Shown in pieces: positions 29,232 through 39,943 of a stretch of DNA of 58,673 nt; the first letter of the stretch is position 1; the number at the start of each line of letters is the position of its first letter. Source of the stretch: Clostridia bacterium (GTDB lineage Bacteria; Bacillota; Clostridia; Oscillospirales; CAG-272); assembly GCA_017399105.1 (NCBI GenBank), contig JAFQEJ010000018.1, positions 1-58,673 of the forward strand, read 5' to 3'. Made by a program: the position numbers and the translations under genes. A model generated the notes under the pieces. It was given only the letters and a program-made list of their open reading frames with translations, made no database searches and was not told the origin of the DNA.

Positions 29232-30484
29232 ATGTGAAAATCCTTTCTGATGGAAGAAACGGTATGCTCAATGTTTTCGTCGATTTTGATCTCGCAGCCG
29301 CAGGTGGCAAGATAACGGTCATAACGCTCTTCAAATCGGCGCTTGATTGCTTCGACTGTGGATGCGAGAGGGCGGTCATCGGTGGGGATCAGTGCTTCCA
29401 GTGCGCGGTTGAGGAAATAGAGACGTCCGTTTCGGCGCAGTGCACGCACATTGTCATCGCGCAAAATCGCGCCGCCGCCTGTAGCGATGACTGCGCCATT
29501 TGTCATGGCAACCTCGCGTACGACCTCTGCTTCAATCTCGCGGAAGCCTGCTTCGCCCTGCTTTTCAAAGATTTCGGAGATTTCGCAGCCGCATTTCTTT
29601 TTGATTTCAGTATCAGTGTCGATAAAGGGACGTCCGAGGGTTTCGGCAAGAGAAAGACCTACGGTGGATTTACCGCTGCCCGGCATACCGGTGAGGACGA
29701 TGTTTTCCTTTTCAGCGCGAATCTCATCGAAAACGCGGTCAAGGATGCCCTCTTCCAGCGGTGTGTCAAGGAAGTATTCGCAAGCCTTTACCGCCTGTGC
29801 AACCAGCATGTATAGACCGCCCTCGCAGGGGAGCCCTCTATCCTCGGTATTGAGAATGAAATTGGTGCGCAGAGGATTATAAACGGCGTCCACTGTGCCG
29901 CACAGCTTCGGGAATTTCGAGATATCGATGGGGCATCCTGCAATATGCGAAGCGCCGTCGGGATAGGGGAACATGCCGCAGGGGGTGGTGTTGATGATTA
30001 CCTCGGCATCAGCGTGGTTGGCGTAGACCTCGTCATAGGAAATCACGCCTTCTTTGGCGCTTCGTCCGGCTATGAGCACCTCTCTTGCGCCCATAGCGTT
30101 GGAAACCGCAATAGAGGTCAGGCAGGTTCCGCCCGTGCCGAGGATGAGAACCTTTTTATCCTTCAGCGACAGTCCGATTCGTTCGATCAGTACAGACATG
30201 CCGTAGAAATCGGTATTATATCCGTATAATTTTCCGTCACGTTTAACGATGGTATTGACTGCACCGACTGCCTTTGCATGCTCGTCGATATGATCGAGAT
30301 AGGGGATGACTGTCTGTTTATAGGGGATGGTCACATTGATGGCGTTGAAGTCGGCGCGTTCCATAAAGGGACCGACCTCATCGGGGGTCAGCTCGGTAAG
30401 AATATATTCATAAGGGGCAAGGCGTGCATGAATCTCCTTGGAAAAGCTGTGGGGGAGATGCTCGCCGATCAGTCCGTATTTCAT
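29228..30484 (-). CDS. aroE/aroK: Bifunctional shikimate dehydrogenase / shikimate kinase fusion
   Basis: N-terminal AroE domain (KYGLIGEHLPHSFS...GTGGT) fused to a C-terminal shikimate kinase (P-loop GMPGSGKST). Confidence 0.85.
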   Translation of the reverse strand: MKYGLIGEHLPHSFSKEIHARLAPYEYILTELTPDEVGPFMERADFNAINVTIPYKQTVIPYLDHIDEHAKAVGAVNTIVKRDGKLYGYNTDFYGMSVLIERIGLSLKDKKVLILGTGGTCLTSIAVSNAMGAREVLIAGRSAKEGVISYDEVYANHADAEVIINTTPCGMFPYPDGASHIAGCPIDISKFPKLCGTVDAVYNPLRTNFILNTEDRGLPCEGGLYMLVAQAVKACEYFLDTPLEEGILDRVFDEIRAEKENIVLTGMPGSGKSTVGLSLAETLGRPFIDTDTEIKKKCGCEISEIFEKQGEAGFREIEAEVVREVAMTNGAVIATGGGAILRDDNVRALRRNGRLYFLNRALEALIPTDDRPLASTVEAIKRRFEERYDRYLATCGCEIKIDENIEHTVSSIRKDFHI

Positions 30485-34342: not shown

Positions 34343-34639
34343 GATGTGCTCCTTTAAAAAAAGCATATTTAAAATTTGTGAATTATTATGCATAAGCTGC
34401 GGTTATGTTGAATCAAAATTCATTATGCCGCAAAAATCTGCCCGCTTTTTAAGAAAGCTGGCGAAAATTATTTCCTCACGAAGATAAAAAAGAAAGCTGC
34501 GTAACGGCAGCGGGGAGAGTGGATCGTTGTCGCTCAATCTGTTGGCATGAATAAATCAACACTAAATAGCATTATATCATACAGCGAAAAAAATGTCAAT
34601 ATTATAGCTGAAAAGATATTATCAAATTAAAGCATAAAA

Positions 34640-34799
34640 GGGACTGTCGCATTTGCATGCGACAGTCCCTTGAATATTGATTATGCCGGTCAAAAACCGT
34701 CATTTCAGGGCGTTTTACGCCCTGAAACCAATCAATATATGCCACAAAATCGGAAATTTTGTGGCGGGGCTGTTGCAAATGAAAAATTTGCAACAGCCC
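34640..34799. repeat. Array of four different perfect inverted repeats (10-14 bp stems) within 160 bp, 3' of the sigma-factor gene
   Basis: Four hairpins, all perfect and with short A/T-rich loops: GGGACTGTCGCAT-ttgc-ATGCGACAGTCCC (34640-34669); TTTCAGGGCG-tttta-CGCCCTGAAA (34704-34728); GCCACAAAAT-cggaa-ATTTTGTGGC (34741-34765); GGGCTGTTGCAAAT-gaaaa-ATTTGCAACAGCCC (34767-34799). Confidence 0.8.
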
Positions 34800-34823: not shown

Positions 34824-36491
34824 TCAGTTATCGTAAACCAGAACCGCCGGAGGACAGCAGCAGTCAAGCTCGGTCAGATGCAGTCCGCGCTCATAGGCTT
34901 CACGTACGACAGCCATGACAATGCAATGGGATGAAATGCAGTAAAGTCGGAAGACAGGCTGATTTTTTAAATGCGCCGGTGGCTTCAGCGGAATACTGTC
35001 AAGGAAGCGGCTGTAGGCATAGCCCAGCACTTCGGTCAGGCTGGTGGTTGCCGCCGATATGAAGCTGTTGATTTCATTGTATTCAGTTCGCGAGAGAATG
35101 GCAATGTCAGGCTTTAATGTGCCATTATCACGCCTCAGCATGCCGAAGGTAATATATCGGTCAATTGTCTGCAGCATGCGCTCATCCAGTTCACCGTTCT
35201 CAGGTGTAACGCCGATGTGTGTGCACCAGAGCAGCTTGTGCATGTCTCTGTTGAGAAAATAGGAATCAAAGCCTGCGGCGGAAGCACGGTAGGGCGAATC
35301 ATAGAAGGGGGTATCAAATTCATAAAGATCGAGGCATTTTGTTCCTCTGTAATCAAGAAGCCGCGAACTGCGGTGACCGCCATGAATCAAATAGTTGCTG
35401 ATTTGATTATCCTTGGCTTCATCGTAAACGGCGGGATAATGGTATGCTACAGCCGACCAGCGGCCACCGTCCTTTCTTTGAGGATAGCTGTTGGGATCAT
35501 TGAAGGATTCCTGCAGCTTCGGGCAGCCGTAAAATTCAAAATCCTGCAGTGCCTTCAGTGTTGCATAACGCTCCAGCTTTATTTTTTGCAAAGGTGTCAG
35601 TGTTTGATAGGAATCCAATTTCCGTATATTGCAGAGAAGTGTGTCCATTGCTGCCCAGAAGGTGTCGAAATGCTCCTTGACAAAGCGCTTCTGCGGCTCA
35701 AAGCGACTGTACCTGTCCTCGGGATGATAAATGATAAAATCGGTATAGATACGACCGCTGTCCTGTCTCACCATTAGCTCGCCGTCAACGAGTCTATCAA
35801 TGACAGGCTCAAGATATACGGTGGGGATACCTAACACTTCTGCAATTTCGGTGGGGAGCAGAGGCTTATCGTAGGCGACAATCAGAATGTTCTGGGCAAT
35901 GAGATCGCCGTTGACAAGTGTGTTCGGTTCACCCTTCCGACCGTCAGAGCCTCCGAAGGTCATTGCCAGTTTGCCTGGGATATATTGCTTCTTATCCATA
36001 TGTTCCTGTCCTTTCGTCAGTCTGTTCCTGAGCTGCCCCCGTCCTGCAGACAGTCTGCTTTTAACCGTTCCCTCGGGAATGCGGAGTGTTTTTGCAATCT
36101 CGGCGACGCTCTCACCTGCGAAATAGTGACGCAGCAGTACCTCGCGGCTCAGCTTTGCCAGATAAAGCAGTTCACGGCGAAGTTCTGCAGCTTCGTCGGA
36201 TTCGCAGACTGTATCAAAAACCTGATCGTCCTCATAAACATCGCCAATGGCATCCATGTTCAGAATCGGCGGCTGTCGGTATAATCTGCGAAGCCGGTCA
36301 TTTGCCTTGTGCATCAGCGTATTTGCCAGCCATGTCCGCGGATACTCAATTTCGTCTCCATGTTTGAGACAGGCAAGTGCTGCCAGCATGGTATCCGAGA
36401 CCAGGTCTTCCGCATCCTGCCGATTCTTTGATTTGGTGAGGGCGAGGGCAAAGAGATCGTCAAAGTAGGTCAGCAGCTCGGTTTTGTTCAT
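34824..36491 (-). CDS. ECF-like sigma-70 family sigma factor fused to a ~380-aa C-terminal domain of unknown function (555 aa, no TM segment)
   Basis: N-terminal ~170 aa has sigma region 2 and region 4 features (LRHYFAGESVAEIAKTLRIPEGTVKSRLSAGR). The long hydrophilic C-terminal extension contains a second HTH-like stretch. GAGGT sits 7 nt before the ATG at 36491. Confidence 0.7.
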   Translation of the reverse strand: MNKTELLTYFDDLFALALTKSKNRQDAEDLVSDTMLAALACLKHGDEIEYPRTWLANTLMHKANDRLRRLYRQPPILNMDAIGDVYEDDQVFDTVCESDEAAELRRELLYLAKLSREVLLRHYFAGESVAEIAKTLRIPEGTVKSRLSAGRGQLRNRLTKGQEHMDKKQYIPGKLAMTFGGSDGRKGEPNTLVNGDLIAQNILIVAYDKPLLPTEIAEVLGIPTVYLEPVIDRLVDGELMVRQDSGRIYTDFIIYHPEDRYSRFEPQKRFVKEHFDTFWAAMDTLLCNIRKLDSYQTLTPLQKIKLERYATLKALQDFEFYGCPKLQESFNDPNSYPQRKDGGRWSAVAYHYPAVYDEAKDNQISNYLIHGGHRSSRLLDYRGTKCLDLYEFDTPFYDSPYRASAAGFDSYFLNRDMHKLLWCTHIGVTPENGELDERMLQTIDRYITFGMLRRDNGTLKPDIAILSRTEYNEINSFISAATTSLTEVLGYAYSRFLDSIPLKPPAHLKNQPVFRLYCISSHCIVMAVVREAYERGLHLTELDCCCPPAVLVYDN

Positions 36492-36582
36492 GATGTTACC
36501 TCGCTTGATTTTTTGTAGCTACACATATATTGTCGTCGGAAAGAAGAGCGGGTTCGATGAATAGGAGAAATTATATAGACAT

Positions 36583-36630
36583 AAATGAAGAAATGAAGAA
36601 ATGAAGAAATGAAGAAATGAAGAAATGAAG
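36583..36630. repeat. Octanucleotide simple-sequence repeat (AAATGAAG)x6, perfect
   Basis: Six tandem identical 8-mers lie between the terminator hairpin of the upstream gene and the TATATAAT -10-like element of the sigma-factor gene. Confidence 0.9.
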
Positions 36631-36660
36631 GAACGGAGCCGTATGATACGACTCCGTTCG
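36631..36660 (-). terminator. Hairpin immediately after the stop of the small ORF 36663-36998
   Basis: GAACGGAG(CCGTATgATACG)aCTCCGTTC. On the minus strand it is followed by CUUCAUUUCUUCAUUU from the repeat tract. Confidence 0.5.
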
Positions 36661-36662
36661 AT

Positions 36663-36998
36663 TTAATCACTGTAGCTGTCGATAATCTGCTCGGCAAGGC
36701 TGAGGAAGTTTTCTTCTCCCAATGTATTGAGCTTAAAAAACATTGCCTGACTTCCGCCCGAGGCTGTCACGATCACACGGAATGTATTGGTATCGCCCAC
36801 CACAGTGAGACTGAGGCTTACGCGATTGCCGCCCGACCAGCTGTATCGCTCATAGATGCGCACGGCACAGGTGACGCCGCCGATTTTATAATCGGAGGAT
36901 TCTTCCAGTGTGACCGAAAGACCGTTTTCGATTTCGCTCCCGAAATAATTCAGAAAGCTGTGCAGATTGCCATTCAGCGTTTTTTCGTATTTTGCCAT
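36663..36998 (-). CDS. Hypothetical 111-aa beta-rich protein, translationally coupled to flotillin
   Basis: Its ATG overlaps the flotillin stop at 36998. No recognisable motif; a Gly/Ser/Thr/Val-rich predicted beta structure. Confidence 0.45.
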   Translation of the reverse strand: MAKYEKTLNGNLHSFLNYFGSEIENGLSVTLEESSDYKIGGVTCAVRIYERYSWSGGNRVSLSLTVVGDTNTFRVIVTASGGSQAMFFKLNTLGEENFLSLAEQIIDSYSD

Positions 36999-38404
36999 TA
37001 CTCTGCTTCGACAGAATTGGTTACATCAGGCTGTGCGCCCTTCTCTGTACCAAGATAGGAGGGAAGCTGCATACCTGCCATGTCGAAAATTTCCTGCATG
37101 GGGGGAATGCTCTTCATCATACCCGAGATAAAGTTGGCGGTGGAGTTTTTGCCGTCCTCGCTGCCCTTGCCCGAATCCCAGACAGTAACCTTGTCGATCT
37201 TGATATTCTTGATCGCATCGACCTGGATCTTGGTGAGCTCTTCCAGCTTGTCGGCAACCATAAGACGGATTGCATCGTTTGCTTCGCCGCCTGCAGCATC
37301 GACGATATTCTTGAGACCTTCAGCCTGCTTGGTGAGCATTTCGCGCATACCGGCAGCTTCAGCCTGCATCTTCATCATGATGGAGTCGGCTTCACCCTTG
37401 GCACGGCGGCGCATCTGCTCTGCTTCAGCTTCAGCTTCGAGCTCAAGTCTGCGCTTTTCGATTTCCATTTTTACGATGACATCTGCCTCGAGACGAGCCT
37501 TTTCAAGCTCTGCACGGGCAAGCTCTGCTGCACGCTCTGCGGCGTAGGATTCCTCTCTTGCGAGAGCGGCCTGAATGTTTTCGGCGGCGGTTGCACGCTT
37601 CAGAGATTCAGCTTCACGCTCACGGCGGATAGCATCCGATTCGGCGATGGCAGCCTTAGCTTCGTTCTCGCCCTTGATTGCCTCGGAGTTGGATGCGGCG
37701 ACGTTGATACGCTGATCGCGCTCTGCATCTGCGGCACCGATGGCACCGGTCTTGTCAGCCAGCGCAACCGAAACCTTTGCGTCGTTAATTGCCTTGGAAG
37801 CGGCTTCCTTACCGAGTGCGCTGATATAGCCCGACTCATCGTTAATATCGGTGACATTAACGTTGATCAGGCGGAGACCGATCTTCTTCAGCTCGGTTTC
37901 CACGTTGCCCGAAACGGCGTCGAGGAATTTGTCGCGGTCGGTGTTGATCTCTTCGATTTCCATGGTGGCGATGATCAGACGGAGCTGACCGAAGATGATA
38001 TCCTCAGCAAGACGCTCAATTTCATCCATCTTCAGACCGAGCAGACGCTCAGCCGCATTTTGCATGATGCCAACCTCGGTGGAGATACCGACGGTAAAAC
38101 GGGAGGGAACATCGATACGGATATTCTGCTTGGAGAGGGCGTTCTTCAGGTCGACGCTGATCGAAACAGGGGTCAGATCGAGGTATTCATAGGACTGAAT
38201 AATCGGCCAGATGAATGCCGCGCCGCCGTGGATACACTTTGCGGAGCGCTGAGTGCCGTCCTGATTGTTGCCGACCTTACCGTAGATGACCATAACCTTA
38301 TCGGAGGGACACTTGCGGTAGCGCGACATGAGAATGATGAAGGTTGTGAAGACGAAGAGCACGATGACGGTCACAAGGACTAACATGGAGGTGTCAATAG
38401 GCAT
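36998..38404 (-). CDS. floT: Flotillin-like SPFH/band-7 protein (FloT/YuaG-like)
   Basis: N-terminal transmembrane helix, SPFH domain, and a long Ala/Glu-rich coiled coil (AEAEQMRRRAKGEA...). Confidence 0.85.
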   Translation of the reverse strand: MPIDTSMLVLVTVIVLFVFTTFIILMSRYRKCPSDKVMVIYGKVGNNQDGTQRSAKCIHGGAAFIWPIIQSYEYLDLTPVSISVDLKNALSKQNIRIDVPSRFTVGISTEVGIMQNAAERLLGLKMDEIERLAEDIIFGQLRLIIATMEIEEINTDRDKFLDAVSGNVETELKKIGLRLINVNVTDINDESGYISALGKEAASKAINDAKVSVALADKTGAIGAADAERDQRINVAASNSEAIKGENEAKAAIAESDAIRREREAESLKRATAAENIQAALAREESYAAERAAELARAELEKARLEADVIVKMEIEKRRLELEAEAEAEQMRRRAKGEADSIMMKMQAEAAGMREMLTKQAEGLKNIVDAAGGEANDAIRLMVADKLEELTKIQVDAIKNIKIDKVTVWDSGKGSEDGKNSTANFISGMMKSIPPMQEIFDMAGMQLPSYLGTEKGAQPDVTNSVEAE

Positions 38405-39746: not shown

Positions 39747-39775
39747 GATTATAGCATACGGTCATATGATTGTCA
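39747..39775 (-). promoter_or_regulatory. Perfect consensus promoter TTGACA-17-TATAAT for the DUF1836/nfeD/floT operon
   Basis: Minus-strand sequence cctaTTGACAatcatatgaccgtatgcTATAATcat. Confidence 0.55.
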
Positions 39776-39943
39776 ATAGGGAATCGAAAGATTTTATGCA
39801 ATTTTTCGACTTAATCTGGACGGATATAATCGGTCGAAAAATCCCGAATATACTCCTTGACAACGATGATTGATTATGATAAACTACACCCAAGGAGATT
39901 TCCGTTATCGAAACAGAAATTGTATTTAAAGAGAGGTAGAATT

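Follow-up and report, generated by a model that had tools for sequence, protein, structure and literature searches.

The window (the whole stretch of DNA that was analysed, 58,673 nt) carries a perfect octanucleotide repeat in the intergenic region between the end of a flotillin operon and a gene specifying an ECF-like sigma factor. All genes in the region of the tract are on the minus strand, and in the direction of transcription the features are as follows:

39748–39776, minus: consensus housekeeping promoter of the flotillin operon (TTGACA-17-TGcTATAAT, 12 of 12 consensus positions)
Ending at 36663, minus: operon DUF1836 / NfeD-like / flotillin (Band_7) / DUF6054, served by the promoter at 39748–39776
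36998–38404, minus: flotillin-like SPFH/Band_7 gene
36663–36998, minus: DUF6054 gene (PF19524, E = 1.8e-37), the last of the flotillin operon
36631–36659, minus: intrinsic-terminator hairpin (13-bp stem, 3-nt loop, −20.8 kcal/mol, z = −6.9)
36583–36630, minus: octanucleotide repeat, with 3, 4 or 6 copies depending on the strain
36570–36577, minus: TATATAAT, with a perfect TATAAT at 36570–36575, a candidate −10 box for the housekeeping sigma factor (P1)
36532–36556, minus: ECF-type promoter P2, CGAACC (36551–36556), N15, CGAC (36532–36535)
36514–36523, minus: perfect palindrome TGTAGCTACA at the predicted +1 of P2
34824–36491, minus: ECF-like sigma gene, 555 aa, ATG at 36491

The DUF6054 and sigma genes are co-directional and separated by 171 nt. 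On the gene strand, the hairpin begins 4 nt past the DUF6054 stop codon, seven nucleotides (ATGTCTA) separate the end of the tract from the TATAAT box, P2 starts 27 nt downstream of the tract with no overlap, and the palindrome is followed by GAGG and then by the sigma ATG. A first-pass annotation had placed the repeat between the terminator hairpin of the flotillin operon and the sigma gene, which is correct when read on the minus strand, and the distance of about 90 nt to the sigma ATG that it gave is roughly right, the TATAAT box ending 79 nt and the tract 92 nt upstream of this start codon. It also named the hairpin, the TATAAT box and an ECF-like sigma factor with a long C-terminal extension, all of which are real. 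A 69-aa ORF running across the tract (36488–36697, minus) was rejected as a mechanical ORF, as it overlaps the DUF6054 gene and passes through the hairpin, tract and promoter region. On the far side of the sigma gene, a second consensus promoter with a TG extension (TTGACA-17-TGnTATAAT, 12 of 12, 34571–34599, minus) drives an HTH_3 gene, and the 430-nt gap between the sigma and HTH_3 genes holds tandem terminator-like hairpins (34638–34671 and 34702–34728, minus) with stems of 15 and 12 bp.

The tract reads (AAATGAAG)6 on the plus strand and (CTTCATTT)6 on the gene (minus) strand, and the unit is strongly asymmetric, with seven of its eight positions being purines on the plus strand. Tandem Repeats Finder bears out the six perfect 8-mers described in the first-pass annotation, and ranks them as the top array in the window (36583–36630, period 8, 6.0 copies, 100% matches, score 96). 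A regex scan of all 58,673 nt detected no other perfect repeat with a unit of 4–12 nt and at least three copies. The longest period-8 self-match run in the window is 40 while the maximum in shuffled sequences (n = 100) is 11, and the chance expectation for a 48-nt period-8 tract in the window is about 5e-20. Rfam returned nothing credible, whether for the window as a whole at the gathering score or, at E ≤ 1, for the 350 nt surrounding the tract. As would be expected of a contingency promoter, the tract is an uninterrupted tandem simple-sequence repeat, and it is perfect in every allele. Organisms using a contingency-locus strategy usually carry several such loci, and within the 58.7-kb window there is just this one.

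The sigma gene product has matches to the Pfam domains Sigma70_r2 and r4_2 within residues 1–160 (9–155), and scores 59.5 bits against TIGR02937 (sigma70-ECF; cut-off 42.9). Its best structural matches (Foldseek) are the ECF sigma factors SigL, SigH, AlgU and SigW. It possesses sigma2 and sigma4 only, with no sigma3 or sigma1, which is the domain content of ECF (group 4) sigma factors. The C-terminal extension of approximately 390 aa (residues ~160–555; 34824–36011) is predicted with a pLDDT mostly above 85 and starts with a winged helix (residues 197–255). Beyond the winged helix, no match was found in Pfam, NCBIfam or the PDB (Foldseek), and the assignment of the extension to a known sensor domain was rejected for this reason. 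ECF sigma factors usually autoregulate their expression, and C-terminal extensions fused to them usually replace the anti-sigma factor (PMC7826278). At least 847 homologs are present in Clostridia metagenomes.

The hairpin that follows DUF6054 is stable and G+C-rich, and the position of its U-tail is occupied by the first repeat unit, CUUCAUUU, which has 5 U in 8 and is just at the threshold of the terminator scan. The scan accepts the hairpin together with CTTCATTTCT, and the earlier suggestion that the tract could serve as the U-rich tail of the preceding terminator is plausible on this placement. In the predicted RNA fold, the structure and energy of the hairpin (−20.8 kcal/mol) are identical with three or six units and the tract is unpaired; no pairing between the tract and the sigma leader or start codon was seen, and the fold of the whole intergenic region is no better than those of shuffled sequences (z = −1.2).

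The sister species L009 (GCA_053312775.1), whose sigma factor is 81% identical, can be aligned across the whole intergenic region, and retains the hairpin, the CGAACC-N15-CGAC motif, the palindrome and the ribosome-binding site. Its hairpin-to-CGAACC stretch is unrelated in sequence, with no repeat and no TATATAAT, and a canonical T7 run, stronger than CUUCAUUU, is found at the tail position. At L009:1–303 the DUF6054 gene has shrunk to a 44-aa remnant right after the flotillin gene, with the terminator hairpin retained.

A wider comparison used 80 loci of other species recovered by a GTDB scan, with sigma factors 39–51% identical to that of the window. The pattern GAAC-N15-18-CG[AT]N is present in 67 of the 80, about 60–70 nt before the start codon, and the consensus of the homolog promoters is aaGtcCGAACC-N15-CGACTATA. 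A pattern of this kind is what one would expect where an ECF sigma factor recognises the promoter of its own gene. In the window, CGAACC-N15-CGAC likewise combines an AAC-type −35 element with a CG −10 element about 16 nt apart, and is conserved in orthologues, and P2 is presumed to be the autoregulated promoter of the sigma gene. The motif has one sensible match in the window, namely P2. A second match (30148–30170, plus) was considered as a lead to the regulon but rejected, as it lies within a coding region of the opposite strand and two matches occurred in 22 of 100 shuffles, i.e. at the level of chance. No repeat was found upstream of the sigma gene in 82 homolog loci (23 kb of upstream sequence), and perfect repeats with units of 5–20 nt and at least three copies occur only twice in 516 kb of homolog loci.

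An exact TATAAT precedes the ECF motif in 40 of 74 anchored homolog loci, with a peak 27–29 nt before the motif, and in 36 of the 74 it takes the form TRTGnTATAAT; a TAGACA-like −35 element 17 nt above this box was seen in the many homolog loci that were read. On these counts, a tandem promoter consisting of a housekeeping P1 followed by an ECF-type P2 is a trait of the sigma family. Across L020–L099, the arrangement about 30–100 nt upstream of the sigma gene is TAGACA-17-TRTGnTATAAT, with CGAACC-N15-CGACTATA following about 28 nt further downstream. Most family members have a highly conserved leader, AAAAGCATTCCGGAAAGCAGG, after the tandem promoters; the window species is without it.

The P1 of the window species is degenerate, with a perfect TATAAT, a displaced TG and no −35 element. 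The hexamers that would serve as −35 with spacers of 16, 17 and 18 nt are TTCATT, CTTCAT and TCTTCA, which have at most three matches in six positions, i.e. no −35 match. The TG of TATG is misplaced by 1–3 nt, and a consensus promoter scan called no promoter at the TATAAT box. The standard for a strong promoter in this genome is set by the neighbouring operons, whose promoters have 12 of 12 consensus positions. P1 may be functional in the window species, since about half of the sigma family has a housekeeping promoter just upstream of the ECF promoter.

The classic slipped-strand mechanism alters the spacing between the −35 and −10 elements. At P1 this spacing cannot be altered by the gain or loss of units, because the −35 window (36592–36599) is wholly within units 5 and 6, and any allele with at least two units presents the same −35 sequence at the same distance from the TATAAT box. 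Nor is a defined regulatory site moved: upstream of the tract there is just the operon terminator hairpin and the 3′ end of a coding region, with nothing to be re-phased. The first-pass annotation had seen in the 8-bp shift caused by each unit the classic geometry for varying promoter strength, a claim that fails on both counts. Its view of a promoter under the control of the tract fares no better, as the conserved promoter is the ECF-type CGAACC-N15-CGAC downstream of the tract, kept in a sister species that has neither the repeat nor TATATAAT. The possibility that the repeat lies in the spacer, with a −35 element upstream of the tract, was also rejected, the distance from the hairpin to TATAAT being already 31 nt with three copies.

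Same-species contigs were gathered by exact-protein look-ups using the sigma factor, DUF6054 and the members of their 90% clusters, and every such contig in the collection was included. Six copies are present in the window, in L001 (= L007) and in L002, four copies in L003 (MAG GCA_052835745.1), and three copies in L012 (= L013, GCA_017624075.1), L015, L016, L017, L018 and L019. A comparison of copy number across strains had been proposed in the first-pass annotation, and the number proves to vary rather than being fixed, with three length alleles (3, 4 and 6) among about eight strain haplotypes that have almost identical flanks. The six-copy contigs, and those broken in the tract, are 100.000% identical to the window over 1.3–6.3 kb (blastn), so that they represent one clone, seen in four samples. 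Two assemblies span the tract in this clone, and both have six copies, although these are consensus contigs, which hide minority length variants. The four-copy strain differs from the window at 10 of 2,543 aligned positions. The three-copy strains (five or more) are about 0.5–1.3% distant from the window and from each other, yet all have three copies in their consensus contigs; when L012 is compared with the window, the tract is the only indel in 4.8 kb.

Three further contigs (L004, L005 and L008, Logan, k = 31) end inside the tract, as is expected when a periodic tract is longer than k. The contig L006 (ERZ28653877 scaffold_362521) is chimeric at 551–927, where 3.9 units are followed by a higher-GC gene (MKPLLYVDGYNIIGAW...) of another organism that is absent from the window. 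The head of this contig shows 2 differences from the window over 581 positions, and it must carry at least four units. A scan of JGI metagenomes with the junction pattern CTTCATTTATNTCTATATAATTTCTCC gave no match, and a protein-guided scan of JGI metagenomes returned relatives of 27–49% only, the same-species locus not being found. The GTDB species-representative scan likewise gave no further alleles, as none of its 80 homolog loci is from the window species.

These comparisons indicate that the tract is an indel hot spot, polymorphic between strains. The slipped-strand phase variation proposed at the outset is another matter: the variation seen is between strains, the six-copy clone having six in every spanning contig and the three-copy state being stable across diverged strains. 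The pattern resembles the usual polymorphism of microsatellites among strains.

The tract is probably a lineage-specific, effectively neutral microsatellite that doubles as the terminator tail and overlies a weak P1. Slippage during replication would have created this young tract in a spacer that is not conserved and separates the flotillin-operon terminator from the sigma promoters, with three copies as the common stable state and expansions to four and to six in two strains. The first unit would supply the U-rich tail of the terminator, the last two units would overlie the −35 position and spacer of a degenerate housekeeping-type P1, and the conserved, presumably autoregulated P2, 27 nt downstream, would be independent of the tract. 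Because both ends of the tract have the same sequence in all alleles, the terminator tail, the core geometry of P1 and P2 itself are unchanged by copy number, and only the distance from the hairpin to P1 changes. From this arrangement we infer which promoters are used, and that copy number either has no effect on expression or modifies the basal transcription of the sigma gene in no more than a mild, quantitative way, rather than acting as an ON/OFF switch.

Ordinary bacterial VNTRs and microsatellites serve as strain markers, and the tract resembles them in being lineage-specific, in having few alleles that follow the strain background, and in the lack of a conserved function in relatives. 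It differs from them in its location, with a terminator stem on one side and a −10 box on the other, where a small regulatory effect is possible. The nearest analogues are intergenic octanucleotides of Haemophilus influenzae, namely ATTATTTG in the cmkB–pdxS interval and GCATCATC ahead of the hmw loci; ATTATTTG varies from 1 to 6 copies by strain and has no known function (PMC2651432). They have in common with the tract an 8-nt unit, an intergenic position, a strain-variable copy number and an unproven function. They differ in belonging to another phylum, in their unrelated neighbouring genes, and in being accompanied by many repeat loci per genome, against one here in 58 kb.

Several points run counter to the neutral reading. 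A perfect six-unit tract is intrinsically prone to slippage, and copy number does vary among near-identical strains. In addition, the T-rich tract upstream of P1 extends from −20 to −43 with three units and from −20 to −67 with six, so that the region from about −40/−43 to −67/−70 is a G+C-rich hairpin with three copies and a T-rich repeat with six, and this difference could alter the strength of P1. An expression rheostat or contingency locus would make use of it: slippage would alter the length of T-rich sequence upstream of P1 and the distance to the terminator hairpin, acting through altered contacts of the RNA polymerase alpha subunit, through DNA topology, or through occlusion of P1 by polymerases terminating upstream. 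The basal level of the sigma factor would shift and, via autoregulation at P2, so would the probability that the regulon is switched on. We regard this as unlikely, even though it is the alternative that survives best. It draws on the three length alleles in nearly identical flanks among about eight haplotypes, on the perfect TATAAT 7 nt from the tract, on the P1-then-P2 order that is a family trait, and on two precedents for repeats that act outside the core spacer, hmw1A (PMC8262952) and sabA (PMC4081817).

In non-typeable H. influenzae, the 7-bp repeats (ATCTTTC)n of hmw1A and hmw2A lie between two promoters (PMC8262952, PMC12721329), and at hmw1A more repeats lead to less expression (PMC8262952). 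Like the tract, these repeats have a unit length not divisible by 3 and are in a promoter region outside the −35/−10 spacer, beside tandem promoters, and their effect is graded and not ON/OFF. They are situated between P2 and P1 of hmw, within the 5′-UTR of the transcript from the upstream promoter, whereas the tract in the window is upstream of both candidate promoters. Switching and the effect on expression have been demonstrated experimentally at hmw, where the repeats number 13–38, while the tract, with its 3–6 copies, falls far below the unit numbers of proven switches with units of this size (PMC2651432). In Helicobacter pylori, a T-tract in the sabA promoter acts as a rheostat (PMC4081817). 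It is comparable to the tract as a T-rich repeat upstream of and adjacent to the core promoter, whose length changes the upstream geometry and not the −35/−10 spacing, but it is a mononucleotide tract, and both its heterogeneity in length and its effect on the binding of RNA polymerase have been demonstrated.

Other observations weigh against a rheostat at the locus itself. The core promoter geometry is the same at all copy numbers, and P1 has neither a −35 match nor a correctly placed TG. The sister species lacks both TATATAAT and the repeat, yet conserves P2. The three-copy allele persists across diverged strains and the six-copy clone has six units in each contig spanning the tract, and there is no second repeat in the 58 kb and none upstream of any homolog. 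A working switch would carry contingency loci beyond the surface genes of pathogens, both to a global regulator and into an anaerobic commensal of the gut; if true, it would be a case of repeat-driven bet-hedging that works via a sigma factor, and in a gut commensal, instead of at a pathogen surface antigen. The full version of this proposal is improbable, namely that, in an uncultured Clostridia species of the ruminant hindgut, slippage of the tract adjusts the basal promoter from which a self-activating ECF-like sigma factor with a fused sensor domain is expressed, and thereby sets the fraction of cells in which the regulon fires.

A role as a terminator or read-through element is rather improbable. 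Here the imperfect U-run CUUCAUUU would leak transcripts into the co-directional sigma gene, only 171 nt away, to an extent modulated by tract length. The terminator scan does accept the hairpin with CTTCATTTCT, and the canonical T7 run of the sister species implies that the repeat has replaced a better tail. Intrinsic termination, however, depends on just the 8–10 nt that are 3′ of the stem, and these are identical in all alleles; the fold is also the same with three or six units, and the tract pairs with nothing downstream. It is very improbable that the tract is a series of sites for a DNA-binding protein or forms non-B DNA, for which the one point in favour is the purine/pyrimidine asymmetry of the unit. 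This gives the tract a likeness to the GAA repeats upstream of the Mycoplasma gallisepticum vlhA genes. Against it, an 8-bp period would put successive binding sites on different faces of the helix, the T that recurs at every eighth position makes a triplex less favourable, and neither the sister species nor any of the 82 homolog loci has the repeat. Least probable of all is an assembly artefact, i.e. collapse or expansion of the repeat by short-read assemblers, since, despite the k = 31 contigs that break in the long allele and the chimeric contig L006, tracts of 24–48 nt are short relative to typical short reads (at the read length assumed), six copies recur in two separate assemblies besides the window and three copies in six contigs from different assemblers, and each allele is tied to its own pattern of flanking SNPs.

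For the neutral microsatellite favoured here, the practical value on present evidence is that of a strain marker with alleles of 3, 4 and 6 copies. The tract also serves as a warning about assemblers, with k = 31 contigs broken in it and a chimeric join there in another contig. Of greater use, as a side result, is the promoter layout seen in a large, uncharacterised Clostridia family of ~545-aa sigma factors. Going downstream, this layout consists of a housekeeping P1, an ECF-type P2 and a lineage-variable palindrome at +1, and it offers testable handles on the control of sigma factors with fused domains.

A perfect palindrome of 8–12 bp is situated 8–9 nt past CGAC, at the predicted +1, in most of 77 loci (the window, L009, L010 and L020–L099). 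Its sequence varies by lineage while the dyad symmetry is kept: TGAACGTTCA is found in 45 loci, followed by TGTAGCTACA, GTACATGTAC, GTATCGATAC, GTAATATTAC, CGAATCGATTCG and others. This loopless +1 palindrome looks like a putative operator for a dimeric DNA-binding protein, candidates for which are the winged helix of the sigma factor itself and the HTH_3 protein encoded downstream. In one homolog locus (L094, ~1830–2010) a distance of 181 nt separates the ECF-type motif from the ATG, and within the leader there are about three imperfect direct repeats of ~20 nt (atatcaaattatca[ag]tgca), which are of another kind than the tract in the window.
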